A DNA stretch of 64,000 bases from an uncultured Candidatus Saccharibacteria bacterium (GCA_964387275.1 CAYLVW010000003.1:45796-109795); one strand, 5' to 3'. Numbered from the stretch's first letter, positions 5,371-50,186 are shown. The notes: generated from the sequence alone by a model not told the origin. Made by a program: numbers and translations.

Positions 5371-5609
5371 TGTCCCAAGTTAAATAGAATATTACTGAAG
5401 AAAAAAATAGGTACTTGTGGTATAAGATACTTTGAGTTAAATTCGGGTAATAGTAAATCTATTAAGGCTCATAGGTTGCGCTTGTCCCTTCTTTTGTGAC
5501 TTAATCATTTTAGAAGCTATGAAGAAAGCGTATAAACAAGCACTTGCACAGCTTAGACTTACGCCGTAAAGTAAATTTACTTATCTTGCCCTTAAATAAG
5601 GAAATAATT

Positions 5610-5846: not shown

Positions 5847-5861
5847 CATCTACGCAGCGAA

Positions 5862-6557
5862 ATGCAAATAGATTTTGAAAAACTCGAAAAAATAATAGAC
5901 ACTCCCATAAACGATAGAAATCTGTATATTACAGCTTTTACTCATAGATCCTACCTAAATGAGCACCCATCATATGATAACCCATCTAATGAGAGGCTCG
6001 AGTTTTTAGGAGATGCTGTGTTGCAATTGATTTCATCCGAATTCTTGTTTAAAAAGTATGGAGATCTCCCAGAAGGGGATCTTACCAATTTAAGAGCATC
6101 TATTGTATGCACCCCCTCAATATCGGAAGAAGCAAAAAGGCTTGGTTATGGAGATTTCCTACTCCTTTCTAATGGAGAAGAAGCAACCGGAGGTAGAAAT
6201 AGAGAATATATACTGGCAAATACATTTGAAGCTGTTCTAGGAGCACTATTTCTAGATAAAGGCATAGATGCATGTAGGGTCCTTATAGAAAGGGAGTTAC
6301 TTTATAAAACTGAGGAGATAAAGGCTAAAAATCTCTACAAAGATGCCAAATCTAAATTTCAAGAACTAGCTCAAGACAAATTCGGAGTCACTCCAAGATA
6401 TGAAGTACTGGATTCATGGGGTCTTGATCATGAAAAAACCTTCAAAGTAGGGGTTTTTATTGATAAAACCTCATACGGAGTTGGGGAAGGAAAAAGTAAA
6501 CAGCGCGCAGAACAGCAAGCAGCAACAAATGCATTAGACAAAATTCAATCGCTTTGA
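5862..6557 (+). CDS. rnc: Ribonuclease III
   Basis: 'ERLEFLGDAVL' RNase III signature plus a C-terminal dsRBD. Confidence 0.9.
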   Translation: MQIDFEKLEKIIDTPINDRNLYITAFTHRSYLNEHPSYDNPSNERLEFLGDAVLQLISSEFLFKKYGDLPEGDLTNLRASIVCTPSISEEAKRLGYGDFLLLSNGEEATGGRNREYILANTFEAVLGALFLDKGIDACRVLIERELLYKTEEIKAKNLYKDAKSKFQELAQDKFGVTPRYEVLDSWGLDHEKTFKVGVFIDKTSYGVGEGKSKQRAEQQAATNALDKIQSL

Positions 6558-29546: not shown

Positions 29547-30212
29547 ATGTTAGGTACAATATTAATCTACGGAGGAACTATAGAAGAAAGAATAGGAAAG
29601 GGAAAAACCTACATAAGTGAATTAAAAATACCTTTAACCCCCAACCCAGATCTATTTATACTAGAAAATGAACCAGATAAAAAAAGCATCGGAATTAAGG
29701 AAACCAAGAATGCAATTGGTTGGCTTGTAGATAGGCCCTTTTCGGCGCCACACAAAGCCTTACTAATTCCCCAAGCTGAAAAACTAACACTTGATGCACA
29801 AAATTCTTTACTCAAAACCCTCGAAGAGCCTCCAACCAAAACCTTAATAGTGCTTTGTACAAAAAGAGAAGAAGACCTAATACAAACTGTTATATCAAGA
29901 AGTAGAAAAATTGCGCTTACTAAAACCAATAACAGCAACACACCAGATATTGACGGGGTTAGCTTTAAAGAAGTACTAAAAATGGATTTGGCTACTAAAT
30001 TAGAAAAATCGACTGAACTTGCAAAATTGGAAAGGTCAGAAATTGTAGATCTTCTAACAAACTGGGAAAATGAAATACATGATAATCTCCTAAGTATTGA
30101 AACTTCTTCACTAATAAATTCGTATAATATTATTAGAGAAGTTAGAATTGATCTGGAGAAAACAAATGTCAGTATTAAGTTTGGTTTGGACTATCTAATG
30201 ACCCAAATCTAA
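29547..30212 (+). CDS. holB: DNA polymerase III delta'-like clamp-loader subunit (short form)
   Basis: 'LLKTLEEPP' clamp-loader signature. Only 221 aa. Confidence 0.6.
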   Translation: MLGTILIYGGTIEERIGKGKTYISELKIPLTPNPDLFILENEPDKKSIGIKETKNAIGWLVDRPFSAPHKALLIPQAEKLTLDAQNSLLKTLEEPPTKTLIVLCTKREEDLIQTVISRSRKIALTKTNNSNTPDIDGVSFKEVLKMDLATKLEKSTELAKLERSEIVDLLTNWENEIHDNLLSIETSSLINSYNIIREVRIDLEKTNVSIKFGLDYLMTQI

Positions 30213-30233
30213 TGACAAACATTACAATTTTAG

Positions 30234-32240
<2,007 letters not shown>

Positions 32241-32336
32241 TTTACGTGTATTTTCTTTTTTAACATTAAAATAGCTAGCAGGTTACAAGTAATGTGTTAG
32301 CCTATATTTGAATCTTTGTTGGTTTGAATATGATTT

Positions 32337-32388
32337 GGGCGGGCGGGTTGAGGTGGATTATTTTTTACCACTACAGACCCGCCCGCCC
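32337..32388. terminator. Strong GC hairpin (11-bp perfect stem gggcgggcggg/cccgcccgccc, 30-nt loop) between convergent genes
   Basis: Directly visible inverted repeat. Lies between gyrB and minus-strand ORF 32448-32915. The loop is unusually large for a terminator. Confidence 0.4.
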
Positions 32389-32447
32389 TATGAACCAAAC
32401 GAAAACCTAAACCAAAAAAACTAACTCAGACAACAACCTTACAAAAC

Positions 32448-32915
32448 CTAAATCAGATCTAAACCACTTCCCCTAAGATTAAGATGAGCAGGTTGGTACA
32501 ACTCGCCGAAAGCTAGATCCTCACACCCACTAGGATATCTATCACTGCATGCCCAAAGCTTGTAGCTTCTTGCATTACTATAATCATAGAAACAACCACC
32601 TCGTTCATTCGTAGCCACAATTCCAACATAAAAATCGAAAATATCTCTAGGCAAAGTAAACATGACGCTCGTCTTTATGCTACCGTTATACCCAAGATAC
32701 TCTACAACATGATGTATTTCAAAAACCAAAATATCCTTCCTAGTTCCAGGAATAGAAATGCGACTATTAAGCTTAGGTTGCATATCAGCTTCACTAAGTT
32801 CGGGGCTAGGATCAAATCTTGTAGCAAGTAGCCTGAGCCAATTAAAAGGAAGCCTAGATCTATAAGAAGCGGGCTCTGCCGTAAAAATACGATTAGGTTG
32901 CCGTGACAGAGCCAT
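32448..32915 (-). CDS. Hypothetical protein
   Basis: 155-aa ORF with no recognisable motif and somewhat higher GC. Confidence 0.35.
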   Translation of the reverse strand: MALSRQPNRIFTAEPASYRSRLPFNWLRLLATRFDPSPELSEADMQPKLNSRISIPGTRKDILVFEIHHVVEYLGYNGSIKTSVMFTLPRDIFDFYVGIVATNERGGCFYDYSNARSYKLWACSDRYPSGCEDLAFGELYQPAHLNLRGSGLDLI

Positions 32916-33079
32916 TAGAGCCTCCCAGCACGGTTGAAAAGACTAAACAAACCTTCAATGAAACATCTGACAAACACCTGAACCATTGTAGCTCCTTTGC
33001 AAATGGGCGAATCATCCCACCAGCAGCTTACAATTCTACCAACTTGAATAACAAAAGCCAAATCTGGTAGACTGCATCA

Positions 33080-34033
33080 ATGAAAATATACACAATAGGG
33101 CATTTATCTCCAGATCTAGATGCAATAACCTCAGCTGTTGCATATGCAGAGTATTTAACAGTTTCTAAAAAATATAATGATGCTGTCGTAACACCATTAA
33201 GGCCAGGTAGCCCAAATAAAGAAGTGGACTATATTTTCAACAAATTCGGGCTAGCCATACCAAAACACATTGAAGAGGTGGAAATACTACCTGAAGACAA
33301 AATAATTCTGGCTGATCACAACGAACAAGCACAAAGACATCCAAAAATTAATCCCGAGCAAATTATGGAGATTGTTGACCACCATAAGATTAACGTAAGC
33401 TTCAACAATCCTATAAAAGTAGACATTAGGCCCATAGGCGCAACTGCAACAATAGTTTCTGACTATTTTGAGTTACTTAAAATATCCCCAACCCCACAAT
33501 TAGCGTCAGCAATGGTGTGTGCAATTTTGTCAGATACATTGGGCTTAAAAGCAGCCACAACAACAGAAACAGACATTAGAGCAGTAGAAAAGCTTACAAA
33601 AAACTTTAACTTAACTGTAGACGAGCTTATTTTTGATGTATTCAAAGCTAAATCAGACTTAAGCGGGATGTCATTTGTTGAGATAGTAAAAAAAGATTAT
33701 AAAATGTTTGAGTTTTCAGGCAAAAAGGTCTTTATTGGTGGTATTGAGACTGTAGAACCAGAAAAAGTTCTAGAATCAAAACAAGATCTAGTTACTGCAC
33801 TTGGGGAAGTAAAAAAAGAACTAGGAGCTGATCTTGGGTTTATATTTGTATCAGATATTCTAAAAATATACTCAATTGGTATATATCAAAGTGATGATGA
33901 AAGAACAGTTTTAAATAAAGCTTTTAATGTAGATGCGGGGGATTTCTCAATTCATGTGGGTCCTATAACCTCAAGAAAAAAAGATATAGCCCCAGCTATT
34001 GAAAAAGCCTTAATCCTAAGCACGATTAGATAA
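33080..34033 (+). CDS. ppaC: DHH/DHHA2 family II (Mn-dependent) inorganic pyrophosphatase
   Basis: 'GHLSPDLDAITSAVAYA', 'LADHNE' and 'VDHHK' DHH motifs with a C-terminal DHHA2 region. About 317 aa. Confidence 0.75.
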   Translation: MKIYTIGHLSPDLDAITSAVAYAEYLTVSKKYNDAVVTPLRPGSPNKEVDYIFNKFGLAIPKHIEEVEILPEDKIILADHNEQAQRHPKINPEQIMEIVDHHKINVSFNNPIKVDIRPIGATATIVSDYFELLKISPTPQLASAMVCAILSDTLGLKAATTTETDIRAVEKLTKNFNLTVDELIFDVFKAKSDLSGMSFVEIVKKDYKMFEFSGKKVFIGGIETVEPEKVLESKQDLVTALGEVKKELGADLGFIFVSDILKIYSIGIYQSDDERTVLNKAFNVDAGDFSIHVGPITSRKKDIAPAIEKALILSTIR

Positions 34034-34091
34034 AAAAGTTTCTAATATTTCATTGAAACACCAATAAAAAGCTGATAATATATTCAGGCAT

Positions 34092-36722
34092 ATGGCATCA
34101 AAAAATAAAGAAATTCGACCATTTGAACAAGACAACCCAGATGGGATTATAAACTCCGATATTACATCAGAAATGCAATCAGCATATCTTGATTACGCTA
34201 TGTCAGTTATTGTTTCAAGAGCACTTCCTGATGTAAGAGACGGTCTAAAGCCTGTTCATAGAAGAATCATATATGCCATGCAGGAACACAACATGATACA
34301 CACAGGTAAGTTCCATAAGTCTGCAACAGTTGTTGGTAATGTAATGAGTAAATACCACCCACACGGAGATGTTGCTATTTATGATTCTCTGGTTAGAATG
34401 GCCCAAGACTTTACACTTAGATACCCACTAGTAATTCCACAAGGTAACTTTGGTAGCATCGACGGAGACCCAGCAGCTGCGATGAGATATACAGAGTGTA
34501 AATTAGCCCAAGTATCCGAAAAACTATATGCAGATATAGACAAAGATACAGTTGATGTAGAACTAAATGACTTGCAAAATGAAGAACCAAGATTTCTCCC
34601 ATCAGTTCTACCAAATTTGTTATTAAACGGGTCCTCTGGTATTGCAGTTGGTATGGCCACTAATATACCGCCACATAACTTAGGTGAAGTTGTAGATGGG
34701 TTAATTCATACCATGGATAATGCAGAAACATTGGGCAATGAAAAAGACATCTACGAAGTAGAACTAAACTTAAACTTTAACAAAAACAGAGAGAAAAAAA
34801 TCGGAGATACAGTAAGAGTTGTAAAAACCGAATTTTCGTCGTCAGCATCAGTAGAAGACCTGATTAATCATATAAAAGGACCGGACTTCCCAACTGGTGG
34901 AATAATATACGATCAAAAAGAAATCATTCAAATGTATGCAACAGGCAAGGGAAGAGTAGTAACCAGAGCAAAAATGGAAATAGAAGAATCTAAAACAGGT
35001 AAAACAAAGATCATAGTCACGGAAATCCCATACCAAGTTAATAAAGCTACCCTCATAGGTAAAATTGCAGACCTAGCAAGAGAGAAAAAAATAGACGGGA
35101 TATATGACCTCAGAGATGAGTCAAATAGAGAGGGTATGAGAATAATGATTGAGCTTAAAAAAGAAGCTATAGCAAAAAAAGTACAGAATCAACTCTACAA
35201 ATATACACAGCTTCAAAACACATTTAATGCAAACATGGTAGCTCTTCTGGATAATGAACCACTATTGATGCCTCTAAAAATGATGTTAGAGGAATTTATA
35301 AAGCATCGACAAAAAATCGTTGTCAGAAGAACCATTTTTGATCTTAGAAAATATAAAGAAAGGGAACACATTTTAGCAGGCCTTAAAAAAGCCCTGGATC
35401 ATCTGGACGAAATAATAAAACTTATTAGAGGCTCAAAAGATGCAGAAACTGCAAAAATAGGCTTAATAGAAAAATTTGATTTCACGGAAATACAAGCACA
35501 AGCAATCTTAGACATGCAACTTAGAAAACTTGCTGCTTTGGAGAGAAAAAAGATTGAAGATGAACTTGAGGAAATTACGAAAACCATAAAAGGTTTAGAA
35601 GCTCTACTAATATCACCAAAAAAGATTGCAGAAACAATAAAATCAGAACTTTTGGCTTTAAAAGAACAATATGGCGATGAAAGAAAAACAAAAGTAATCA
35701 AGGGTAAGGTAGGTGAACTATCTGATGAAGATTTAATAGTTGATGAAGCCTGTATTCTTACAATATCAGACAACGGATATATTAAAAGATTAAAAGAGGA
35801 TACATATAAAAAGCAGGGAAGAGGAGGTAAGGGTGTTACAGGCCAAACACTAAAAGAAGAGGATGAGGTTTCTATGCTACGAACCTGCAGAACCCATGAC
35901 TATGCGTTGTTTTTCACCAACCTAGGAAAAGCCTATAAATTAAGAGTTTGGGAAATAGCAGAGTCTTCTAGAACCGCAAAAGGCACGGCTCTTGTGAATT
36001 ACCTAAATATCCAAAAAGAAGAAAAAGTAGAATCGCTTCTTACCCTAACTCCTGAAGAATTTGAAAGCAGCAAAGGATATGTATTCTTCGGAACTCAAAA
36101 AGGTAATGTTAAAAAAACAAGCCTAGAGGAGTTCGCCAATATTAGAGCCTCTGGTATTATTGCAATAAAACTAGACGCAAATGACAGCTTAGTCTGGGCC
36201 CAAGTATCTTCGGGATCTGATACAGTACTTCTTACAACAGCACAAGGTCAGTCTATAAGATTCACTGAAAAAGATGTAAGACCTATGGGTAGAGCAGCAG
36301 CAGGTGTAATTGGAGTAAAACTCGCAAAAAGAGACGACAGGGTAGTTGGCATGGTTGTAATACCACAAAAATTAGGAAACCTCGATCTTATTACAGTAAC
36401 CGAATTGGGTTACGGTAAAAAAACCAAACTAGCTGAGTACAAAGTACAGGGAAGGGGCGGATCAGGTATACAAACCCATAAAGTCAATGATAAAACAGGG
36501 GAGCTTGTAAACGCCAAAACTCAAGATGAAACTTCGACTGGGGATATATTAATTGCAACACTAACCGGAAAAGTGATAAGAATTACCAACAGCTCAATCC
36601 CACAACAAGGAAGAGCTACAAGTGGAGTCAGACTCATCAGACTAGAAGAAACAGATAAGGTAACATCGGTGGCCTTGATAGAAGAAATTGAATCTGCAGT
36701 AGATCCGGAATTAAACCCCTAG
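34092..36722 (+). CDS. gyrA: DNA gyrase subunit A
   Basis: '[23 protein letters not shown]' and active-site 'RYTE' region. C-terminal beta-pinwheel repeats. 876 aa. Confidence 0.95.
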
Positions 36723-36827
36723 CTTTTCGTAAATAAACTGTGAACTGATTAGTCTACCTCACCTTTTTTCTTATAGGTAATGGTCAATATGCACACCAAC
36801 ATGGTTAAAATCCGTGTTTCACCTGCC

Positions 36828-36874
36828 ACGAAAATAAAAAGTACCCACACCTCAGTTCAAACCTTAGTGTGGGT
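36828..36874 (-). terminator. Rho-independent terminator of ORFan P1
   Basis: Stem 'acccacac'/'gtgtgggt' followed on the minus strand by 'ttttatttt'. Confidence 0.5.
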
Positions 36875-36883
36875 ATTAAAAAG

Positions 36884-37288
36884 CTAATAACTCAAATCGC
36901 GTAAAAACCCCTCTACGTTATCCAACCAAGACTGATCCCCAGTTCTTACAACCTCAGCGTATTTCTTATCAAAAAGTTCCCTAATGTAGCTCTCACTTGC
37001 ACTAATATATACATAAATATTATCTCTAAGAAGAGCACTAAGGGCGGGCAAAGTTTCATTGTAGAAATGTTTGAGATTATTTCTTGAATCACTAACTCCT
37101 ATATATGGATAATCGTGAACTTTATAGATATGTAATCCATACTCAATACCTTTGTATTCAACAAATAAAACGTTGCACTTCGCACCTGATCTGCACAACA
37201 CACCTCTAATTGAAACCCTACCACTACGTAAGCCTTCAACAAGAGTTCTTAGCAGTGCATAGTCATATTCGGTGATACGTGCCGACAT
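36884..37288 (-). CDS. ORFan P1 (island 1)
   Basis: 134 aa with no known motif and its own terminator. Possible weak similarity to P2 (58659-59084). Confidence 0.5.
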   Translation of the reverse strand: MSARITEYDYALLRTLVEGLRSGRVSIRGVLCRSGAKCNVLFVEYKGIEYGLHIYKVHDYPYIGVSDSRNNLKHFYNETLPALSALLRDNIYVYISASESYIRELFDKKYAEVVRTGDQSWLDNVEGFLRDLSY

Positions 37289-37427
37289 CTTGCCTCCTCT
37301 TTCCGTAGACTTTGGAAATACTAACTTACACTACTACAAATGTCAAAATCAAAACCAGGGCTATAAAATGCTGGGTTGTGCATAGCCTATATTTCTAAAC
37401 TTATGCCTCTCCACGCTGTTGCCTTAC

Positions 37428-37470
37428 AAAAAAGGGCTCCATAAATACCAAACGGCACTATATGGAGCCC
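37428..37470 (-). terminator. Rho-independent terminator of ORFan P3
   Basis: Perfect 10-bp stem 'gggctccata'/'tatggagccc' with a T6 run on the minus strand. Confidence 0.6.
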
Positions 37471-37508
37471 AAATAAACTATTACTTCTCTCTACTTCACA
37501 AAAAAACC

Positions 37509-37949
37509 TTACTCATCGTTAGTTGAAAGCAAAAACTCAGCAAGATTAAAACGAAACCGCCGGTTAGTAGCGAGTCTCTTCTTTGTTTGTACAGCAACAG
37601 CAGCCTTAAACTTCCTAAGAATTGAAACAAAAATATCAGGATATCTTGTCAATTCAAAGTCATATAAAGCCATATCCCGCAACTTTTCTACACAAAGATC
37701 TCCGGTGACAATCCCCGTACCTTGCCTATCAACAATGGCAACCTTAAGAGTGTCTGGACAATTACGAACATTAGTAATAGTAATTTTCCTGTATCTATCA
37801 AGAACCACAAGAATATACCCATCCGGGTTTGTAATAGTATCGGTCTCAACTACATGCAGTTCTGTAGACTTCAGACCTTTAATTACATCAAAAACGTAAT
37901 CCAGCAACTCAAATACCTGTCTATTTGTAGCAACATACAGACCGTGCAT
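37509..37949 (-). CDS. ORFan P3 (island 1), homolog of P4
   Basis: Shares 'TNPDGYILVVLDRYRKI' with P4 'TNPDLGIVEQVLDRRFKV', and 'FDV' upstream. Confidence 0.5.
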   Translation of the reverse strand: MHGLYVATNRQVFELLDYVFDVIKGLKSTELHVVETDTITNPDGYILVVLDRYRKITITNVRNCPDTLKVAIVDRQGTGIVTGDLCVEKLRDMALYDFELTRYPDIFVSILRKFKAAVAVQTKKRLATNRRFRFNLAEFLLSTNDE

Positions 37950-37992
37950 TTGTTTTTCTCCTGCTTGAAAGACTCTTTATCTACTGAGTCAA

Positions 37993-38448
37993 TTACTCTG
38001 TAAAGCTCCTAAGAAGTTCTTTAAGCCACCTATCAATACCAAAGTGTTCACGAAGCCCATCTGCTCCGTATTTATGGTCCAACGCTGACGCAATAATACT
38101 AGTAACACTCTCGTATAGTTCGTTGAAATCGTTATTCTCAGCATATGTCAACCTCTTACCGTTATAAACCTCAATAAGTACCGGCTCTCTACTTACTCTA
38201 TTACCATATACTGTAATAGTAAGCTCAGAGCTTGTATTAGCATCAATCTCAGGTCTATAAATTACTTGAATTGAGGTATCGTTGGAACCTAGCAAGGTAA
38301 AAATACAAATTCTATCCCTCTCCCTATATTCAAAATTAAAAGTGTTGCTAGCCAAGGCCTTGATACCAAGAGTCACAAGTAGGGTGTGTACCGTTTTAAG
38401 AAGATCAAATCTACCTTTAGTATTGAGTCTTCGGATACCGCTTGCCAT
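37993..38448 (-). CDS. ORFan P6 (island 1), probable homolog of P5
   Basis: Start moved to the MASGIRRL ATG. 'VYGNRVSREPVLIEVY' matches P5 'LVGEIKSRELGIVLRDLY'. Confidence 0.45.
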   Translation of the reverse strand: MASGIRRLNTKGRFDLLKTVHTLLVTLGIKALASNTFNFEYRERDRICIFTLLGSNDTSIQVIYRPEIDANTSSELTITVYGNRVSREPVLIEVYNGKRLTYAENNDFNELYESVTSIIASALDHKYGADGLREHFGIDRWLKELLRSFTE

Positions 38449-38507
38449 CTCGTCTCCTTTTCCACTATCGGTCAGAATTTTACTAGGAAATACTATATAA
38501 TGCAAAT

Positions 38508-39212
38508 GTGCTCGAATACGAAAAAAACCTGCTATCACAGCAAAAAATACATATAGCCGGTGTGGATGAGGTGGGTAGAGGCTGCCTGGCAGGTCCTATG
38601 GTGATAGCTGCAGTAATATTAGACCACAAACACATTGAGCAATTAACAAGTAGAAATAACGACGTCTCAAATGGTATGAAGGAATTAGACATTGGAATAG
38701 TTACTAAATATACCCAAATTAAAGATTCTAAGCAGATTAGCGACAAAAAGAGAAGGGAACTAGCAAAATTTATTAAACAAGCTGCAATTACGTACTCAAT
38801 TATAGAAATTAGTGCGTCAAATATTGATAAATACGGTATTTCTATGTGTACTAATTACGGGTTTCGTGAAGCTGTATCAAAACTCACCATACGACCCCTG
38901 CATATACTGACGGATGCATTTAAGATAACTGGAATAAATCCCAATATTCAAACAAATTTGGTAAAAGGCGATACAAAGTCCATATCTATAGCATCTGCAT
39001 CAATAATCGCAAAGGTATACAGAGATGATCTGATGATAAAACTCTCCCAAGATAATAACTATAGTATGTATGGTTTTGACAAGCACAAAGGGTATGGCAC
39101 TGCTCTGCATCTTTCAAAAATAAACGAACATGGATCCTCAGACATTCACAGAACAACTTTTGCCCCAATTTCCCACCTAATAACAAACTCTTACAAAAAG
39201 CCCACTAAGTAG
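38508..39212 (+). CDS. rnhB: Ribonuclease HII
   Basis: 'IAGVDEVGRGCLAGPMV' RNase HII N-terminal DEDD motif. Confidence 0.85.
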   Translation: MLEYEKNLLSQQKIHIAGVDEVGRGCLAGPMVIAAVILDHKHIEQLTSRNNDVSNGMKELDIGIVTKYTQIKDSKQISDKKRRELAKFIKQAAITYSIIEISASNIDKYGISMCTNYGFREAVSKLTIRPLHILTDAFKITGINPNIQTNLVKGDTKSISIASASIIAKVYRDDLMIKLSQDNNYSMYGFDKHKGYGTALHLSKINEHGSSDIHRTTFAPISHLITNSYKKPTK

Positions 39213-39246
39213 AGTATTACATATACTAACTAAGAATTTTTTTCTA

Positions 39247-40347
39247 TTGACCTCCAAATGTTCATTAGATAATATAAGGTACGTGACTGAACACGATTTT
39301 CCATTAGCTTTATCATATGACGACGTTTTGCTCGTCCCTTCATATTCCGAAATAACATCAAGGTCCCAAGTAAGCACTAAAACCAAACTATCAGAGAAGT
39401 TAACTTTAGAGATCCCGCTAATTTCAATAAATATGGATACTGTCACTGGTGTAGAAATGGCTATAAAAATGTCAGAACTGGGTGGGTTGGGTCTTATACC
39501 AAGATTTGATGCCCCAGGTATCCAAGCTGAAAAAGTGACTAAAGTTAAAAAAGCAGGTCAGCGTGTAGGTGCTGCTCTAGGTTGTAAGGAAGGTTTCCTG
39601 GAGAGAGCTGAGATTTTAGTAAACTCCGGCGCTGACCTACTGACAATTGATGTTGCTCATGGTCACATGAAAAAAGCCTTAGAAGCAACAAGTGATTTAA
39701 AAAACAGATTTGGAGATCTAATAACTATAATGTCAGGGGTTGTAGCTACATATGAAGGTGCCAAAGATCATTTTATGTATGGAGCTGATGTTGTGAGAGT
39801 AGGGGTAGGTCCGGGTACAATTTGTACTACTAGAGTTGAAACTGGTTTTGGGGTTCCACAAATTACAGCGATATCTGAGGCGGCTAGAGCTGCCAGGGAA
39901 GCTGGTAAGGTAATTGTGTCAGACGGAGGTGCTACTACTTCAGGGCACATAGTTAAAGCTCTAGCCGCCGGGGCATCTGCACATATAGCAGGATCTATAT
40001 ATGCAGGAACAGACGAAGCCCCAGGAGAGAAAGTGGAAATAGATGGAAAGATCTACAAAGAGTACAATGGTTCTACTTCCAAAAAAGAAAAGCTTAGACA
40101 AATAGAAAAGGATAACTCAGACAAAGATCACTCCTACGCAAAACATATAGAGGGAGTTGAAGCATTTGTTCCATACAAAGGCCCTGTCTCAGAAATAGTA
40201 GAGAAGTATGTCCATAACATCAGATCTGGTCTTAGTTATGCCGGCGCAGAAAATATACCGGATTTGTGGAAAAAGGCTAAATTTATTAGAATAACAGGTG
40301 CGGGTTTCAAGGAAAGCCAGGCTCACGACGTTGTACTAATAAGATAA
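39247..40347 (+). CDS. guaB: IMP dehydrogenase/GMP reductase family protein (no CBS pair)
   Basis: '[11 protein letters not shown]' and catalytic '[20 protein letters not shown]'. 366 aa with no CBS insert. Confidence 0.75.
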
Positions 40348-40407
40348 GCGCCATACTGCCACTTTTACCTGTAATAACAGGCAAAACCTCAAACCCATAC
40401 AACATAT

Positions 40408-41457
40408 ATGAAAACTAATCAAAAATTATTCAGAATAGTTGCCTTTATAGTATTTGTGATACTACTGCTTGGGGTTCTTGGCATATTTTCATCAAGTCTA
40501 TTCTTCAAAATCCTGAACTTTATATGGATTTTCTTCATGATATGCGCAATTATCTTTATATTTCTAGGAATAATGGTCATTTTTGGACTTAGGAAAGAAG
40601 CTGAAAGAATTTTAGATTTTCTATTGGAGGGATCATTAACTATAGTAGACTTTGTCGAGTTCCTTAGAAAAATATGGAGGAAATTTCTTGCTTTACTTAA
40701 AGACTTCCTAACATACTTTATACCGTTTACAGCTGTGTTAATAACCATAGTTATTTATTTTGTACTCATTTATCTGTTTAAATATGTAGGTAAAACCTAT
40801 GATGTAACATACCTAGCTGTGGGTCTTACTATATTACTTATCACTGCGGTTAACTTTATTCCAGCTCAAAGTGAGGGAGATGAACTAGTTACCTGGTCTA
40901 AAATGGTATCAAACTCCTTTAAAAGTGTACTTAGAGATTCAATGGAACTAATGATTTTCGTTTTCTTCTTAACAATGGATAGCACAAACTTGTTCTTTAT
41001 TCCGGAAAGCTTAAATGTCCCACTTCACTCTGCAATTGGAACCTATGATCTTATGAAACGAGGGATAGTTTTTAAGGATCATACAGATGTAACTCTTACT
41101 TTGGTGATTGCAACAATTGGACTAGAGGTTTTCAGGTATTTTCTAAAATTAGCGAGACAAGCAATCATTTTCTATGAAAAATCTGCAATGGAACCATCAA
41201 TAAATAGATCATTATTAATTAAAGATTCAATAAGACTCAGTTTCTCAAACTCAAAGAGGGAAGTATTAAAGTTTATAACTTTCACCACCTTCCTTATCTC
41301 AGTTTTCTTACTATTTCCTAGGCTTAAGACCCTACTTATGGTGGTCACTAGTGTGAACCTGTTGATACTGGATCTCATAAAACCCGACCGTTTGGTTATA
41401 AAAAGCAGTTCTGATCTGATAAGCAGAATACTCGGAAAAATCTTTAGACTAAGTTAA
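40408..41457 (+). CDS. Hypothetical polytopic membrane protein
   Basis: At least 8 hydrophobic segments. No motif. Confidence 0.45.
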   Translation: MKTNQKLFRIVAFIVFVILLLGVLGIFSSSLFFKILNFIWIFFMICAIIFIFLGIMVIFGLRKEAERILDFLLEGSLTIVDFVEFLRKIWRKFLALLKDFLTYFIPFTAVLITIVIYFVLIYLFKYVGKTYDVTYLAVGLTILLITAVNFIPAQSEGDELVTWSKMVSNSFKSVLRDSMELMIFVFFLTMDSTNLFFIPESLNVPLHSAIGTYDLMKRGIVFKDHTDVTLTLVIATIGLEVFRYFLKLARQAIIFYEKSAMEPSINRSLLIKDSIRLSFSNSKREVLKFITFTTFLISVFLLFPRLKTLLMVVTSVNLLILDLIKPDRLVIKSSSDLISRILGKIFRLS

Positions 41458-41524: not shown

Positions 41525-42508
41525 TCACTCATCATCATTAAAATCCTCACTATCTATTTCTTTATGAAATTTCTCATGTATGTCCTTTAACTGTTTGTTA
41601 GTGACATGGGTATAAATTTGGGTTGTTGATACATTTGAGTGACCTAATAACTCCTGGACAGAGCGCAAATCAGCCCCATTTCGCAGTAAATCCGTTGCAA
41701 AAGAGTGCCTCAGTGTATGCGGAGTTGCATCAACACTTATACCCGCTCTTAATGTATATTTCTTAACAAGTCTTTGAACACTTCTGACAGTAAGCCTCAG
41801 GGATTCACCCTCAAAATCTTCAGGCTCCATATGCTTACCACTATATCTAAGAAATAGAGGATCAAAACTGTCTATTCTGGTACCTAAATATCTTTTTAAC
41901 CAGCTCCTAGCACTTTCTCCTAAAAACACCATTCTTGCCTTACGACCTTTACCAATTACTGTAAACTCACCAGTATTTAAATTAATATCGCCTTTATTTA
42001 GCTTTACCAACTCACTTACTCGAAGACCAGTTGTAAAAAGTGTCTCTAAGATCGCCCTATCTCTTAAACCAGATTTTTTGTTTAAATCTTGCACTTCAAA
42101 TAATCTCTTCAGTTGATCATTGTCCAGTACTTTAGGGACCCTGTCTTCCATTTTCCCAAGAATAATCTGATCCGGGGAAATTACCTCAATTTTTTCTTCT
42201 ACCAGCAAATATTTTAAAAAAGCTCTTGCAGCAACCAAAAAAGTTTTTTGAGTAGTTCTTTTAAACTCGGTGTTAAATTTTTTGCTTTTGCGCCTGTTTA
42301 AATCCAATCTGTATTTCCTGATTAATTCTTCGCTTAAATCCTTGGCAGTTAACTTGTCCTTACTAAGCTGAGCAGAGCACCAGTCTAACATGTCAGTAAG
42401 ATAAAAGTGGTACATTTTTATGGTATTTTGAGACAAGTTTTTTTCAATCTCACAATGCTCTAAATATCTAATTAAAAGGTCGTGAAGGGTTTTTCCAGAT
42501 TGTGGCAT
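41525..42508 (-). CDS. Tyrosine site-specific recombinase (XerC/XerD family)
   Basis: C-terminal 'HTLRHSFATDLLRNGADLRSVQELLGHSNVSTTQIYTHV' (R..H..R..Y catalytic signature). Start set at the MPQSGKTLHD ATG. Confidence 0.85.
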   Translation of the reverse strand: MPQSGKTLHDLLIRYLEHCEIEKNLSQNTIKMYHFYLTDMLDWCSAQLSKDKLTAKDLSEELIRKYRLDLNRRKSKKFNTEFKRTTQKTFLVAARAFLKYLLVEEKIEVISPDQIILGKMEDRVPKVLDNDQLKRLFEVQDLNKKSGLRDRAILETLFTTGLRVSELVKLNKGDINLNTGEFTVIGKGRKARMVFLGESARSWLKRYLGTRIDSFDPLFLRYSGKHMEPEDFEGESLRLTVRSVQRLVKKYTLRAGISVDATPHTLRHSFATDLLRNGADLRSVQELLGHSNVSTTQIYTHVTNKQLKDIHEKFHKEIDSEDFNDDE

Positions 42509-42530
42509 AACATATATGTTAACAGATATT

Positions 42531-42560
42531 TGTATGGAGTTTAACGACATTAATTTATAA
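42531..42560. repeat. Direct repeat copy A (overlaps the xer 5' end and upstream)
   Basis: 'tgtatggagtttaacgacattaatttataa' against copy B 'tgtatgtttaacgacattgaattacat'. Confidence 0.6.
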
Positions 42561-42594
42561 TTATAAATCGATTTTGGTGGCTGTGGATTGAATT

Positions 42595-42626
42595 GGGGCG
42601 GCCTTTTTCATGAAAAAGGCCGCCCC
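42595..42626. terminator. Bidirectional rho-independent terminator (perfect palindrome)
   Basis: 'ggggcggcc tttttcatgaaaaa ggccgcccc'. 9-bp GC stem with an A/T run on either strand. Confidence 0.7.
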
Positions 42627-42665
42627 CAACACCCAAACAACAAAACCAGCCATATTGTGACAAAA

Positions 42666-43013
42666 TCAAAAAGAAATAGAAACAGTGAGATAAGTCGGTG
42701 TTGAAAACTTAACATCAAAAACATAGCATTGAGAGTTTAAAGCCCTCATAAAATCCCCATACAACAAGTCATAGTCACCGAAAACTCTCTTAAGAAGAGT
42801 GGAAACGACATAAATAGTATTCCATAAACACATATTCCTGTAGATGCTTTCTGGTATACCAGCTTCTAGCTGTCGTTCAGAATTAATATAACCTACAGTA
42901 ATAGTTGTAACCTTGCCACTCTTTACCAAGTCAAAAAAACTAGGAGTAAGTTCTAATTTAAACCTAGGCAACATAGTATCGAAAAGGGACAAACTTCCTG
43001 TTCCGAGTGTCAT
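42666..43013 (-). CDS. Hypothetical protein
   Basis: 115 aa with no motif. Downstream of the AT-rich region. Confidence 0.4.
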   Translation of the reverse strand: MTLGTGSLSLFDTMLPRFKLELTPSFFDLVKSGKVTTITVGYINSERQLEAGIPESIYRNMCLWNTIYVVSTLLKRVFGDYDLLYGDFMRALNSQCYVFDVKFSTPTYLTVSISF

Positions 43014-43019
43014 ACTAAG

Positions 43020-43989
43020 ATGCCTCCTTTAGGCATAGTTCTTTCTCCGTCTACGATTTACAGTTTATACCACCCAGAGTCGTAGCGAGTCAAATGATTC
43101 AGCATACCTATTAATAATAATAATCGATCCTGGGGCATTCTAGAGGCCATATGCCAGAATTTGTTGCTACTACAAGTAAAACAAGCCTTTACATGTCCCA
43201 TATAGTGTATAGAGAACTAAATAAGGAGGAGTCTAGTCATTAAAAAGCAAAACTAGCGGCAAGGGAAAACTATAGTGATAGACAAAATAGGGAATAAATA
43301 AAAAACTAAAATAATTTTTCAAATTTTTTTATCTTACAAATAAATTACTTCGCCAAAATAAAAACTAAAAATAAAATATAGACTAATTTTTAGAGAGAAG
43401 CGCACTTTACTAGATATCTGAAACGTCGTTAAATGTATGTTTAACGACATTGAATTACATTTTAGGCCTTACTACAGTAACTAAAGAGATTCACAGGTAA
43501 AAAGAGAAGAGTTAGTAATCGGACAGTAATTTAATCCCGAATTTCACTAAATTAATCACTATAAAAAAATATTTAAATAAATAATAAATATATTATTAGT
43601 TTCTTAACCAGGCTCAACACCACAGCTTAAGTGATTGGGTTTGATATACCGCAGTCCTACATATCCACAAAGTCTACTCCCTGCACAGGTGGATATTACC
43701 TAAATTAGAATCAAAAATCATGGGTTTTTGTTGTTATATTAACCTAAAGAGGCATAACTATGACAAACCTCCATAAAAACTATGACAATCCTACAATGGT
43801 CATTAGAATATTATTATGACAAACGTACAACTATAGGTTAGCAGACTACCCTATAGTATGCTACCCTGCTTCTCTGTCCCATACTGTAACCCGAAAAATT
43901 ACCCAACAAATAATTACTCAATAATTCCCTTTTTATTGCAGTGAAAAGGAAAATAAAAACTCACGATATATTTTTTATAAATATTAAGC
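43020..43989. promoter_or_regulatory. 970-bp AT-rich ORF-free region with DnaA-box-like motifs and short direct repeats
   Basis: No ORF of 60 aa or more. 'atatccaca' at 43661 and 'ggtggatat' at 43688. Three copies of 'tatgacaa(a/t)c' at 43759, 43781 and 43815. Long A/T tracts. Confidence 0.4.
43444..43470. repeat. Direct repeat copy B (pseudo 5' end of xer, 'MSLN...')
   Basis: The reverse complement encodes 'MSLNIH...', mirroring the Xer N-terminus 'MSLNSIQ'. Contains the palindrome 'gtcgttaaatgtatgtttaacgac'. Confidence 0.55.
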
Positions 43990-44814
43990 TTAAGGATTAA
44001 ACACTAAAAGAATTGCCAAAAAGGTTGCGGTTATTACAAGATGCTGCACTATAAGATTCATAGTCACATTGTTTTTTAGTGTTTCAGAAACATAATTTAA
44101 GCAAAACATAAACACAGAGGCCACAAATATTGATCTTAGAAAGGATTCTGTAGGGATAAAAGATACCGCAAGTCCAGAGAAAAAGACAAAAAACATTGTG
44201 AAAATTACAAGGCTGGACTTCTCTCCTCTGGATAAATTCTTGTGAGAATCTTCGAAAGAGTATGACCATATGAGATACATGACAAGAGAGGCAGATGATA
44301 ACGATGCTATAAAATTCTGCACTATAGCATTAACATTTATCTTAAAAACTGATGCAAAGAATGGAATAGTTAAAGAGATTAACAAAATCTGCATCCAAGT
44401 CAGTGCAGCCCTGTACAATGGGATGCTCTCACTTCTCTCTTCAATCACTAAAAAAATATTGTTAATAAGCGATGCTATGTATAACGCAATAAAAAATAAA
44501 ATAACCAAAGTAATTTTGATGTAGATACTTAGATTTGGAAAGTAGTAAAAAGAGCCTAAAACACCAACAGTCAGATGAAAAGGCATCAAAGAATGGGTTG
44601 AGAAATTTCTAAATGAAACTGAGGGAAACTGGATGATAAATACTCCAAGAATTGAACATGCAAGCGCTAAAAACGTGTACAAAACTCTATACTCAAAACT
44701 ACCCCCAAAAGCAAAAAGCAACACAAAAAGGCTCACTAAGGCTGAGTAAATAGTAAATCTTGCTTTTTTATCTACTTTTAGTAGACTTGCGTTTAGTTTT
44801 TGCTTTAACTTCAT
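43990..44814 (-). CDS. Hypothetical polytopic membrane protein
   Basis: About 8 TM segments. Overlaps the ruvC 3' end, so the start is uncertain. Confidence 0.45.
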   Translation of the reverse strand: MKLKQKLNASLLKVDKKARFTIYSALVSLFVLLFAFGGSFEYRVLYTFLALACSILGVFIIQFPSVSFRNFSTHSLMPFHLTVGVLGSFYYFPNLSIYIKITLVILFFIALYIASLINNIFLVIEERSESIPLYRAALTWMQILLISLTIPFFASVFKINVNAIVQNFIASLSSASLVMYLIWSYSFEDSHKNLSRGEKSSLVIFTMFFVFFSGLAVSFIPTESFLRSIFVASVFMFCLNYVSETLKNNVTMNLIVQHLVITATFLAILLVFNP

Positions 44815-45292
44815 AATCTCCTGTTGTTTTTTTTAAATGACACAGTGCCATAGCAACAGCATCATTCTCATCATCAGATTTAATAATCTCTTTAAGAAAG
44901 AGGTGCTTTTGAACTGAGTTTTGCATGTCTTTCTTATCCGCTCTTCCATAACCAGTTAGTACTAACTTAGCTTGGAGGGCTGTATACTCATAAACTTTCA
45001 TATTATTCGTGGATGCTGCAAGTAAAGAGATCCCTCTTGCCTGACCCACATTTATCGCGGTCTTTGCATTAGTATTAAAAAATAGCTGTTCAATAACCAT
45101 AATATCGGGCTTGTGGTTATCAATAATCTGAGTTATTTCTTTAAAAAGTTTGGCCAATCTATCTGGAGTTTCCATATCTACTGTTGTAATAAGTACCGTG
45201 GAGTGAAGAAGCTTTGGTTTGGATGGTCTACTTACATCTAAAACAGCACAACCCATCCTAGCAGTACCAGGATCAATTCCAAGAATCTTCAT
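44768..45292 (-). CDS. ruvC: Holliday junction resolvase RuvC
   Basis: 'ILGIDPGTARMGCAVLD' RuvC N-terminus. 174 aa. Confidence 0.85.
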   Translation of the reverse strand: MKILGIDPGTARMGCAVLDVSRPSKPKLLHSTVLITTVDMETPDRLAKLFKEITQIIDNHKPDIMVIEQLFFNTNAKTAINVGQARGISLLAASTNNMKVYEYTALQAKLVLTGYGRADKKDMQNSVQKHLFLKEIIKSDDENDAVAMALCHLKKTTGDYEVKAKTKRKSTKSR

Positions 45293-45846
45293 TACTCCTG
45301 CCCTTCTTCTATTATTTTAAAATTATAGAAGACTTCCTGCACATCATCGTGATCTTCCAAAGCCTGAACAAAATCAAAAAGTTTATCCGAAGTCTCAGCA
45401 TCAGTGACTTCCATACTAAAAACAGGGTTTTTTGGATCGGATCCGAATATATACCCGACACTGCCTGGTGTACCCAAATTACCACCATGCCTACTAAATA
45501 TAGTTCTTAACTCAGCAACAGTTCTGTTTCTATTATCTGTAACAGCTTCAACCATAAATGCAAAGCCACCAGGGCCAAATCCTTCGTAGGTGACCTCCTC
45601 AATATGCTCCCCAGACAACTTACCCGTACCCTTGTCTATTGCCTTTTCGATGTTCTCTTTAGGCATTCGGTTTTCTTTAGCCTTCTCAACCGCAAGTCTT
45701 AGGGCTGGGTTTGAATCTAAATCACCGCCACCCTTTTTTGCTGCAACAGTAATAAGCCTGCTAAGCTTAGAAAATACCTGACCTCTTTTAGAGTCGTTGG
45801 CTGCTTTATCTCTTTTTATTGTTGCCCATTTCGAATGACCGCTCAT
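45292..45846 (-). CDS. yebC: YebC/PmpR family regulator (short)
   Basis: '[22 protein letters not shown]' family signature. 184 aa against a typical length near 240. Confidence 0.8.
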
Positions 45847-47615: not shown

Positions 47616-50186
47616 CTAATGATTGGCGGTTCCCGCAAATCTGGAAGAATCAGAGCCTCCTGAAACACTTCTAGACCCATCTGAAGGCTTTCTATCCTTA
47701 GCTTCCTGAGCAAGAGCTAATCCCTTATCAAAATTAGTTTCAACCCACTTATTTATTTTTTCTTCGACATAAATTCTATCAGTACCATACTTCTCCCTAC
47801 TTCTTGCAATTACCTTCTCCTTATTAGGGGTATTATTTATTATGTTGGAGCCAGATTCCCAAGGCAAAAGTATTCGTGCAGAAAAAGGCAAAGACGTCAT
47901 ACCATCTATCATAAGCTTGATATAAATGTTAAATCTCTCAAGCGATATAATATCACTTTGATCAAAATATGGCGCAAACTCGTTAGCTAATACCTTAGCA
48001 TCTGGAGCACCCAAAGAAAATGTTGCTATGGTACCGACATTACCAAAAACTGCTTTTAGTAAGTTCTCTGGCAACTGGTCTGTAAATTGGTGTGTCAAAT
48101 ACAAACCAAGTCCGTATTTTCGGGACTCTGATAATATTTCTTCAAAACTACCTGTTGCAAAATTTTGAAATTCATCAACATATAAGTAAAAGGGCCTTCT
48201 CTCTTTATAGGGTATCTTGGCTCTTTGTAAAGCCATAAACTGAATTCTAGAAACTAGTAAAGCTCCCAAAAGATTAGAGTTATCTGTACCTATCTTACCT
48301 TTGGATAAATTCATCAAAACAATCTTGCCGTTATTCATAGCTTCCCATAGATTTATTGTAGATTTTCGCTGTCCTAGAATATTTCTAATAGTTGTGGAAG
48401 CTAAAAACCTATTTACCTTGTTTTGGATAGGAGCTATGGCTTCTGTCGCAAATTTCTGATTTCCCTTTAGGTTTTTAAACTCGGTCTCCCAAAACCTAAG
48501 CACTACTGGATCCTTAACATAGTGGAGTATATACTTCCTGTAGTTATCATCCTCAAGCAATCTAGTTATGCCAAGTAGTGTGGTTCCAGGAACCTCCAGT
48601 AACGTCAAAATTGCGTAGTTAAGTAAATATTCCAATCTAGGACCCCAAGAAAAATCAAAATGGTGTTTAATAGCAGATACAAGGGCAGAAGCCATAATAT
48701 TTTTCTGAGAAGGGTCTTCCATTTCAAGCAGATTTAACCCTATGGGACGTTCTGTATCTGATGGGTCAAAGTAAATTACATCCTCGATTCTATTATCTGG
48801 AATGTGTTCTAAAACCTTATCTATAGTCTCACCATGAGGATCCAACACCCCAACGCCCGCACCATTTTGAATGTCCTGTGTGATCATGGTTTCGAGCAAT
48901 GTAGACTTACCTGTACCAGATTTACCAATTAGGTACATGTGCCTCAATCTATCATCGGTATTAGCCATCCCAAATCTAACCTTTGAACTTCTATACATAG
49001 TTTCTCCCATATAATTACAATCTGTAATTGGCAATGTTGACGGAGGTTCTGCTTTTTTTGAGTGTATCCAGGAAATATTTGGTGTTTCGACCTTATTAGA
49101 TGGCATATGATAGAGAGTTGCAAGCTCTTCAACATTCATAACAACAGCTCTCTCATCCTCGTACTGCCTCTTTATATAAGCATCTAGAGCATAATTTCTA
49201 TCATGTGATATTGTAGAAACAAACGCATTAGAAGATGTACTGGTAAACTGCTTTAAAGAAGCTACAACAGATCTGAGATTAGAAACTACCCTATCTTGGG
49301 TATTAGAAGAGGACATAACTCTAATAACAACCTTATAACCCATCTTGGCTAACTTATTCTCAATCCCACTTAACTCATTTTCCTGAACTGGAGTAAGTTT
49401 TGGAGGCCCAGCCGGCTTTACTGAAGCCACAGGCTTACCAAACCTATCAACCTCGGCGTTGTATCTAAAAGGCGATATAGCTATATTGGAAGCTAAATCC
49501 AGCATTTCCTTACCAATAGATCCCGCAAATTCAGCAAAAGGGTTGCTACCAGAGCTTTTCTTTAGATCTACCCCTTCCCTTATAGCGTTTGTATATTTGT
49601 AACCGTCATTTTGCCAAGTATCAGGAGTGGGTCTAACTAATACCTGCATCCACAAACTCTCTTCACCAAGCACTTCAGAAAAAGAAGAAGTTAACCCAGA
49701 TAATGGATCAGTCTCAAAATCTCTGAAAGTTTTTATTGGGAAAAAATCTGGTTTTGAAAAACTAAGGTAGCTTACCTCAAAAAAAGAATCACGGGGCGTA
49801 TATTTCTCAGTATAATCTGAAACAGGTATTAATTGAGCTGTGGGGTATTGAGCATAAAGCTGACTTTCTACAAATTTAATGGCGGATGGAGGGGCTGTAA
49901 AATAAAACTTCAAGCCTTCTCTACCAGTAGATACAATCTCAAAAGAAATGTTCTCCTGAACTATGGAGTCCTCCCTAAGAAGACCGTGTAAGGATGCGAA
50001 CATATTTTCTGCAGAAAGTGGGGAGGTTTCTAGTTGATTTTCATCAATTTTAGGTACGCGGATTTCAAAAACTTCAAAGGCACCGGAATTAGAAGCTGAG
50101 GTATCGATTTTAGAACCAAATCGTTTAAACGCTATAAAACCCCCGGTCAAGGCTATAAGACTAAAAACTATAAAATATATTGCCAT
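47616..50186 (-). CDS. Membrane-anchored P-loop ATPase of the HerA/FtsK/TraD (DUF87-like) superfamily with a large N-terminal domain of unknown function
   Basis: N-terminal TM. About 400 aa with no motif. 'RHMYLIGKSGTGKST' Walker A, 'VLDPHGE' and 'FYLYVDEFQNF' Walker B. 856 aa. Confidence 0.6.
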   Translation of the reverse strand: MAIYFIVFSLIALTGGFIAFKRFGSKIDTSASNSGAFEVFEIRVPKIDENQLETSPLSAENMFASLHGLLREDSIVQENISFEIVSTGREGLKFYFTAPPSAIKFVESQLYAQYPTAQLIPVSDYTEKYTPRDSFFEVSYLSFSKPDFFPIKTFRDFETDPLSGLTSSFSEVLGEESLWMQVLVRPTPDTWQNDGYKYTNAIREGVDLKKSSGSNPFAEFAGSIGKEMLDLASNIAISPFRYNAEVDRFGKPVASVKPAGPPKLTPVQENELSGIENKLAKMGYKVVIRVMSSSNTQDRVVSNLRSVVASLKQFTSTSSNAFVSTISHDRNYALDAYIKRQYEDERAVVMNVEELATLYHMPSNKVETPNISWIHSKKAEPPSTLPITDCNYMGETMYRSSKVRFGMANTDDRLRHMYLIGKSGTGKSTLLETMITQDIQNGAGVGVLDPHGETIDKVLEHIPDNRIEDVIYFDPSDTERPIGLNLLEMEDPSQKNIMASALVSAIKHHFDFSWGPRLEYLLNYAILTLLEVPGTTLLGITRLLEDDNYRKYILHYVKDPVVLRFWETEFKNLKGNQKFATEAIAPIQNKVNRFLASTTIRNILGQRKSTINLWEAMNNGKIVLMNLSKGKIGTDNSNLLGALLVSRIQFMALQRAKIPYKERRPFYLYVDEFQNFATGSFEEILSESRKYGLGLYLTHQFTDQLPENLLKAVFGNVGTIATFSLGAPDAKVLANEFAPYFDQSDIISLERFNIYIKLMIDGMTSLPFSARILLPWESGSNIINNTPNKEKVIARSREKYGTDRIYVEEKINKWVETNFDKGLALAQEAKDRKPSDGSRSVSGGSDSSRFAGTANH

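Follow-up and report, generated by a model that had tools for sequence, protein, structure and literature searches.

A candidate dif-like Xer site with a proposed one-sided accessory block in a conserved intergenic region of WWE3 chromosomes

What does an otherwise densely coding bacterial chromosome keep in almost a kilobase of DNA without genes? The question is raised by a stretch of 64,000 nucleotides (nt) from an uncultured Candidatus Saccharibacteria bacterium (GCA_964387275.1, CAYLVW010000003.1:45796-109795) – the whole of which we call the window – where positions 43014-43989, between ORF115 and the membrane-protein gene ORF274, hold no open reading frame (ORF) of at least 48 amino acids (aa). 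The first-pass annotation, made from the sequence alone, had singled out this region as unusually long, AT-rich and non-coding, and so it is: at 976 bp it is the largest gap of the window (counted between ORFs of at least 90 aa), the next one measuring 416 bp and the median 45 bp, and its GC content is 31.5%, against 36.9% for the window. The homologues of the flanking proteins bear source names of candidate division WWE3 (Patescibacteria), and the mean intergenic distance reported for a closed WWE3 genome is 66 bp (PMC3812714). Contigs with homologues of ORF274 (84, 80, 42, 40 and 36% identity) or of the nearby Xer recombinase (about 70%) share both the gene order and the long gap, which is kept at the same place, at about 600–1000 bp, in all related loci. 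Our preferred answer, drawn from sequence comparison and given about an even chance of being right, is that the gap is a multipartite cis-acting module of WWE3 chromosomes, consisting of a dif-like Xer core site and an accessory region on one side of it. As part of this best explanation, the module would act as DNA, not as RNA.

The proposed core site and the gene to which it appears to be tied comprise the following elements:

43425-43448, minus strand: core palindrome GTCGTTAAA-CATACA-TTTAACGAC, with 9-bp inverted arms and an asymmetric 6-bp spacer; proposed Xer (dif-like) core site
41525-42550, minus strand: gene for a XerD-like tyrosine recombinase of 341 aa (xer), with Pfam, NCBIfam and PDB matches
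42560-42587, minus strand: promoter-like element TCCACA-16-TATAAT upstream of xer
42540-42548, minus strand: solitary left-arm half-site GTCGTTAAA, immediately past the -10 of that promoter-like element

The core palindrome, absent from the motifs listed in the first-pass annotation, turned out to be the most constrained element of the region. Its left arm and 6-bp spacer are identical in 34 of 34 WWE3 loci, which include eight lineages ascertained through their proteins rather than through a DNA pattern, as well as 18 loci that came from scanning public genomes and metagenomes with the palindrome pattern (all of them WWE3-like, with one copy each). Over the same loci, identity falls to 46–70% for Xer and to 25–46% for ORF274, and the remaining intergenic DNA is unalignable; an alignment of the three closest gaps consists of near-invariant blocks amid barely alignable DNA. 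The window has a single copy, unique even when three mismatches are allowed, and 33 loci have one on each contig. Wherever the flanks are long enough, the core shares its strand with the xer-like gene and precedes the start of the tblastn match to Xer by 174–1897 bp; yebC and ruvC (and, where present, the membrane-protein gene) lie upstream of the core.

The inner part of the right arm occurs in four forms (TTTAACGAC, TATTACGAC, TTTTACGAC and TTATACGAC), with no compensating change in the left arm; this fits a protein-binding site with an asymmetric strand-exchange region, and does not fit a hairpin. Known Xer/dif sites are non-coding and low in GC, about 28–31 bp long, with two inverted arms around a centre of 6–11 bp (PMC5357621; PMC9765430), and the WWE3 core has this anatomy, being intergenic, 33% GC and built as 9+6+9 bp, with arms of 11 bp in some lineages. 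Two other kinds of site were considered and rejected for this palindrome: a telomere-resolvase site, as the 6-bp centre lacks self-complementarity and the 341-aa protein is a Xer of the ordinary kind, and the end of an invertible segment, as no second full site occurs in the 64 kb even with three mismatches.

The recombinase scores 255 bits against the NCBIfam model for XerD, 247 against that for XerC and 216 against that for archaeal XerA. Its best solved relative is Escherichia coli XerD (PDB 1a0p, E 2e-47), with which the conserved tyrosine-recombinase motifs align, as judged by stretch rather than by single residues. E. coli XerD matches it at 165 bits, compared with 58 bits for the XerH structure, and the XerS model gives 125 bits, below its cut-off of 267, so that the protein qualifies for neither the XerS nor the XerH family. 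The called start at 42550 is probably too early by a few codons. The gene, which is the only xer copy in the 64 kb, is chromosomal, XerD-like and in conserved synteny, and is not part of a mobile element. Among the candidates of the first-pass annotation was a mobile element, linked to the recombinase next door, whose control region this would be; the tie to the recombinase is supported, by way of the 24-bp core-like palindrome that had gone unlisted, and the mobile element is not.

A further connection between site and gene comes from solitary half-sites, which read GTCGTTAAA or CGTCGTAAA. The one at 42540-42548 is kept in L002 (at about 5056) and L003 (at about 2671), where it precedes the called start of xer by around 40 nt; a distant clade (L017, L019 and L020) has an analogous half-site immediately 5' of xer; and in L007, L013 and L020 a left-arm half-site is found just past the xer stop. 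Their presence at xer boundaries ties the arm sequence to xer. The half-site at the promoter suggests that the protein binding the arms also regulates xer, and the boundary half-sites as a group suggest either autoregulation or remnants of recombination events.

The half-site at the promoter could also be taken to mean that the palindrome does no more than serve as an operator, bound by a dimeric transcription factor or by Xer as a repressor, or else that it is an attachment site or control region of a mobile element, with no part in chromosome resolution. Integrating elements often use Xer sites (PMC9765430), and ORFs resembling those of insertion sequences adjoin the module in L010 and L012. 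We nonetheless consider this quite unlikely. As much as 1.9 kb can separate the full site from xer, with a gene and a terminator in between in the clade of the window, so that the site is not promoter-proximal; the invariant 6-bp spacer suits strand exchange better than it suits an operator; and the synteny is fixed and chromosomal, with housekeeping neighbours, in all loci examined. Besides, the palindrome pattern has no exact match in viral contigs (zero hits), blastn of the palindrome against plasmids gives chance matches only, none of them significant, and the same holds for blastn of the repeat and box block, described below, against phages. As separate observations, L010, L015 and L024 carry a degenerate second arm 190 bp downstream of the core, and the module is directly preceded by transposase-like coding sequence in L010 (about 5600-6000) and L012 (about 720-1150); an element may have inserted at the site and left these traces.

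What, then, is the remainder of the conserved DNA, on the far side of the core from xer? It contains most of the motifs noticed in the first place, and is listed here together with the AT-rich tracts, one of which lies on the other side of the core:

43661-43669, minus strand: DnaA-box-like 9-mer, reading TGTGGATAT on the minus and ATATCCACA on the plus strand; 8/9 match to TTATCCACA
43688-43696, minus strand: second box, ATATCCACC; 7/9 match, forming an inverted repeat with the first box
43759-43768, 43781-43790 and 43815-43824, minus strand: three direct repeats (G)TTTGTCATA(G/A)T, the 'iterons', together making up the block 43759-43824
43538-43612, no strand assigned: AT-rich tract (at least 85% AT) between box and core; mean of 86% AT at about -120 (20 loci)
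43278-43399, no strand assigned: AT-rich tract (at least 85% AT) beyond the core; mean of 79–82% AT at +80 to +120 (20 loci)
43944-43988, no strand assigned: third tract of at least 85% AT, from the composition of the window

Both box-like motifs lie where the first-pass annotation had placed them and match as it had stated. In the window, matches to the DnaA box with at most one mismatch number 16, when 20 are expected, so that a box in a single sequence is not significant; what makes it significant is that 22 lineages conserve it at the same relative position, and not the window by itself. In relatives it reads TGTGGATAA, the reverse complement of TTATCCACA, and is the exact consensus in most lineages. 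It is present as one copy, in a single orientation, 179–262 bp upstream of the core (338 bp in one lineage) in 22 of 22 non-redundant lineages. The second box is not general, being kept only in the window and L002 and lost in L003 and the other clades.

The three copies of TATGACAA(A/T)C reported by the first-pass annotation are likewise present and in place; the uniform spacing of about 22 bp is not, the actual values being 22 and 34 bp. The 64 kb hold exactly three copies of this motif, confined to 66 bp. Across lineages, TTGTCATA repeats adjoin the box in one to four copies and in fixed orientation, upstream of it in 20 of the 22 lineages and between box and core in L010 and L015. Neither box nor repeat motifs occur downstream of the core, save for stray repeat-like matches in L026 and L030, and the AT-rich tract begins 50–100 bp from the box. 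By comparison among relatives, the motifs first noticed are conserved and look functional. As to their nature, the repeats were also considered as -35 boxes of promoters, a reading rejected because, in the lineages inspected by eye, no -10 is suitably spaced, and as degenerate DnaA boxes, rejected because they reach at most 4–5 of 9 matches in any register.

The distance from box to core is far tighter than that from core to xer, or than that of either element to any gene. Moreover, in the window clade, where a gene has come to lie between xer and the core, it is the upstream block that retains the full palindrome, xer being left with a half-site only. For these two reasons we read the block as part of the same nucleoprotein site as the core.

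An alternative is that the box belongs to a DnaA-controlled regulatory site that has nothing to do with the palindrome and acts on the transcription of a neighbouring gene or, in the manner of datA and DARS, on DnaA itself. The 9-mer, as the exact consensus in most lineages and with conserved position and orientation, would suit such a site. On the other hand, datA and DARS have several boxes rather than one, and the WWE3 box, which follows the stop of the upstream operon and is at least 400 bp from the next downstream start, has no obvious promoter partner; its distance to the palindrome (179–262 bp) is far tighter than that to any gene. We regard an independent regulatory site as unlikely. 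Of the DnaA-regulated region proposed in the first-pass annotation, this leaves a region that may be bound by DnaA, given that the box is conserved; the origin form, to which we now turn, is not supported.

As a chromosomal origin, of the oriC or iteron type, the locus would have an initiator bound to the repeats, DnaA bound to the box and an AT tract that unwinds. The ingredients do invite this reading: repeats, one consensus box and a tract of about 100 bp at 86% AT keep their order and orientation in most of the 22 lineages, and gyrB, gyrA, holB and dnaB all lie within 13 kb. The proximity of the gyrase genes had been pointed out in the first-pass annotation, correctly (gyrB at 30249-32240 and gyrA at 34092-36722, with dnaB at 55–57 kb), as had the lack of dnaA in the window. 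Direct repeats, a DnaA box and an AT-rich tract in fixed order are also what the module shares with iteron-type origins – those of pSC101, P1, F and chromosome 2 of Vibrio cholerae (oriCII) – and with the basal unwinding system of oriC. It is unlike them in having one box and neither an initiator gene, nor a DnaA-trio array, nor a skew switch.

The skews speak against an origin. With the locus oriented from yebC to xer as the plus strand (the reverse complement of the window), skews at third codon positions were split into a coding-strand component, which proved near zero, and a strand-independent one. The strand-independent GC skew (GC3) of the window is +0.14 to the left of the site and +0.07 to the right, and the AT skew (AT3) -0.16 and -0.21; in 16 other loci, GC3 is +0.13 and +0.11 and AT3 -0.09 and -0.11. 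All confidence intervals exclude zero, and coverage extends over -20/+43 kb in the window and over 10 kb on each side in the other loci. As the sign is equal on both sides, one strand is G- and T-rich throughout, which means that the fork crosses the locus from yebC to xer; and as the sign does not change, the site is neither origin nor terminus within -20/+43 kb. A bidirectional origin is thereby refuted, by the local skew check, one of the observations that the first-pass annotation had named as telling against an origin.

Other evidence also goes against an origin of either type. Genes on the upstream side run into the site and not away from it (115 on the plus and 21 on the minus strand). 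Instead of a cluster of DnaA boxes there is one consensus-like box per lineage, in a window without box enrichment. In the basal unwinding system, a box is followed, after no more than 16 bp of spacer, by three or more DnaA-trios and then by AT-rich DNA (PMC8287927); here, the longest run of NAN triplets beside the box averages 2.73, compared with 2.98 ± 0.23 in shuffled sequences. A tblastn search with E. coli DnaA gave no match in the window or in 24 related loci, and none of the neighbours of the repeats (the membrane protein, ORF115 and Xer) matches a family of initiator or Rep-like proteins. A chromosomal origin, put forward in the first-pass annotation, therefore seems very unlikely. An even less probable variant would have a unidirectional iteron-type origin beside the dif-like site, with origin and terminus coinciding; if true, it would explain the origin-like block, the dif-like site and the unchanged skew sign together. 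In a milder version, DnaA at the box may couple the cell cycle to Xer recombination away from the terminus.

Gene orientation converges just after xer, which might suggest a terminus there. This reading was rejected: the skew contradicts it, and the convergence reflects a conserved cluster, about 10 kb long and head-on, beyond which the genes are co-oriented again. The cluster (IMPDH, RNase HII/rnhB, gyrA, DHH/PPase, gyrB and holB) occupies 29547-41457 on the plus strand of the window and is also found downstream of xer in L025, L028, L030 and L032; coded on the lagging strand as marked by the skew, it is head-on to replication in all lineages. A second observation concerns an operon resembling those for type IV pili or type II secretion systems (8003-29539, minus strand), whose GC3 skew is near zero, with an AT3 skew like that elsewhere in the window; the operon may have been acquired later or be under different constraint. 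Our literature search found nothing on origins, skew or dif in WWE3 or in the Candidate Phyla Radiation (CPR), and Kantor et al. (2013) do not discuss skew.

Could the gap instead encode an RNA, as a non-coding RNA gene or a cis-regulatory RNA lacking annotation? Strongly conserved blocks beside unalignable DNA would be expected of one, there are local inverted repeats around the CTATAG motifs, and one T-to-G change in L012 would, as judged by eye, retain a G-U pair. At the gathering threshold, however, the only Rfam match in the whole window is a distant tRNA-Leu, and at E<10 over 42500-44500 there is nothing in the gap, the chance matches (microRNA and small RNA models, low score) falling on the terminator hairpin at 42595-42626. 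RNAalifold finds zero consensus pairs in the repeat and box block of 14 lineages, and folding energies are no better than those of shuffled sequences on either strand (z-scores +0.6 and -0.96). Furthermore, motif order and copy number differ between lineages, and the changes in the palindrome arm are uncompensated. We judge an RNA to be highly improbable, and the suggestion of an uncalled structured RNA in the first-pass annotation finds no backing in the Rfam, RNAalifold or z-score results.

This leads us back to the proposed Xer module, which can be set against known systems. Linkage of gene and site is a hallmark of the single-recombinase systems XerS/difSL and XerH/difH (PMC5357621). As in XerS/difSL of streptococci and lactococci and XerH/difH of Helicobacter and Campylobacter, the WWE3 palindrome is a low-GC, non-coding site linked to, and upstream of, the recombinase gene (PMC5357621), and its near-symmetric arms suggest that, here too, a single recombinase species would be involved. 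The differences are that the WWE3 protein is XerD/XerA-like, that the centre is 6 bp rather than the 11 bp of difSL, that the site is not at a skew switch and that a conserved box and repeat block lies upstream. With XerC/XerD dif and archaeal XerA/dif, the WWE3 system shares inverted arms, a 6-bp centre and a recombinase near the XerD, XerC and XerA models. Its spacer reads TGTATG on the other strand, where E. coli dif has TGTATA, and Sulfolobus dif is also situated outside the fork-fusion zones. Unlike classical dif, the WWE3 site differs in arm sequence, has no terminus location and is accompanied by one Xer gene in 64 kb.

The one-sided block has its closest parallel in cer and psi, in which an Xer core is joined by about 160–180 bp of one-sided accessory DNA bound by ArgR/PepA or ArcA/PepA, and which work independently of the terminus and of FtsK (PMC5357621). 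The WWE3 anatomy appears compatible with theirs, in that a core has a conserved, one-sided and orientation-fixed motif block a few hundred base pairs away. Unlike cer and psi, the WWE3 module is chromosomal, is present in all WWE3 loci examined and has its block farther from the core; the box-like 9-mer and the TTGTCATA repeats are not known accessory sites, and protein binding to them is predicted here from their sequence. Accessory direct repeats next to a core are a feature of the Tn4430 IRS as well.

How might such a module work? We infer that Xer binds and recombines the palindrome, that DnaA binds the box and that the block has an accessory role. Two protomers of the XerD-like protein (41525-42550) would bind the two arms, cleaving and exchanging strands across the asymmetric 6-bp spacer, so that the core would serve as a dif-like site, linked to its own recombinase gene, for the resolution of chromosome dimers or catenanes. 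By analogy with cer and psi, the box and repeats would form an accessory or architectural block, on one side of the core and about 180–400 bp upstream of it, and the AT-rich tracts on both sides of the core would be easily bent. The block would load host proteins – DnaA at TGTGGATAA and an unnamed protein at the TTGTCATA repeats – which may then control the timing or direction of recombination. Accessory control of this kind could explain a site away from the replication terminus.

Several points weigh against this proposal. Classical dif marks the replication terminus, whereas there is no skew switch at the WWE3 site. We know of no role for DnaA as a Xer accessory factor, and no gene for an accessory protein can be named. 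The arms are unlike the canonical XerC/XerD arms of E. coli and Bacillus subtilis dif. The helical phasing of box and core is marginal (p about 0.05, with lineages that are not independent). Finally, the search pattern fixed 22 of 24 positions for 18 of the loci, so that only the lineages ascertained through proteins give unbiased evidence of invariance. As regards the terminus, a location there is usual for dif sites (PMC9765430).

The gap contains a few more elements:

43830-43867, minus strand: block with two copies of AGGGTAG, TGCTAAC and two CTATAG palindromes; relatives hold the same short motifs
43503-43509 and 43394-43400, minus strand: CTTCTCT direct repeats flanking the core, at about -60 and +30
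43122-43143, minus strand: conserved motif CTAGAATGCCCCAGGATCGATT, preceding the first gene beyond the gap
43064-43093, minus strand: putative promoter of ORF115, TTGACT-N16-TGgTATAAA, with TTGAC and TATAA blocks conserved in the alignment

The first of these includes the ctaccct and ctatag duplicates of the first-pass annotation, which are indeed there; in relatives, the G-rich, TGCTAAC and CTATAG motifs recur in variable order. Motifs of the TTCCCY/TCTCT type stand, by eye, at positions similar to those of the CTTCTCT repeats in most relatives. The motif at 43122-43143 belongs to a sequence of about 35 nt, CCTGTGAGG..AGAATGCCCC.GGATCGATTTT, found on the minus strand of the window and in L002, L003, L008, L030 and L032, where it precedes ORF115 in the window and xer elsewhere; a role as operator or 5'-leader element is conceivable. 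A scan of the region for sigma-70 promoters and terminators gave counts not above those of shuffled sequence. Integron attI/attC cores (GTTRRRY / RYYYAAC) were considered and rejected, the motifs being present in the wrong relative order.

The genes and other features that frame the gap are, in the order of the minus strand:

45292-45846, minus strand: yebC, conserved upstream neighbour
44768-45292, minus strand: ruvC, conserved upstream neighbour
43990-44814, minus strand: ORF274, membrane-protein gene (274 aa, no family), conserved upstream neighbour
43014-43989, no strand assigned: the whole gene-free region, between ORF115 and ORF274
42666-43013, minus strand: ORF115, no family match; lies between core and xer in the window clade only
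42595-42626, no strand assigned: terminator between ORF115 and xer, a perfect GC-rich palindromic hairpin of 32 nt, terminator-like on both strands

The tyrosine recombinase gene follows. YebC has 184 aa in the window (45292-45846, minus strand) and 167–194 aa in relatives, and the profile of its second and third domains is matched in two pieces; it is the shortened YebC/TACO1 form typical of these genomes. A homologue of FtsK was not found among the sequences examined from the window and the related loci. Farther upstream, 47616-50186 (minus strand) encodes a protein of 856 aa in which a single membrane helix, at the N terminus, is combined with a HerA/TrwB/VirD4-like P-loop ATPase (DUF8128 and DUF87), and which tblastn shows not to be FtsK. 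Its gene lies 3–5 kb upstream of the yebC-ruvC-site-xer array, in a synteny kept in every long WWE3 locus, and the protein could be a DNA translocase serving the locus or a pilus or uptake system. Among the loci compared, L033 (NCBI BPJL01000003.1) shares a cluster representative and gene order with L032 (JGI Ga0246236_1000002) and has fragmented genes, which probably reflects an indel-rich assembly rather than pseudogenisation. Long records with the module include ENA ERZ4756921 NODE_2 (683 kb; module near 580 kb), NCBI JBPOHV010000001.1 (925 kb; near 690 kb), ENA ERZ27254749 k141_139117 (852 kb; near 113 kb) and JGI Ga0246236_1000002 (768 kb; near 695 kb).

For origin prediction, the locus counsels caution, as a DnaA box, repeats and an AT tract near gyrB and gyrA are insufficient to call an origin. 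On chromosome dimer resolution and cis-acting chromosome sites in the CPR, our search of the literature found nothing, and the module appears to be undescribed so far, a variant on the Xer/dif theme. What it provides is concrete and can be tested, namely a 24-bp site paired with a named recombinase gene in all WWE3 loci examined. Should Xer indeed act on this site, off the skew switch and with a conserved DnaA-box block of its own, WWE3 would have a bacterial chromosomal Xer system independent of terminus position, with a logic nearer to that of plasmid cer/psi or archaeal XerA than to that of E. coli dif.

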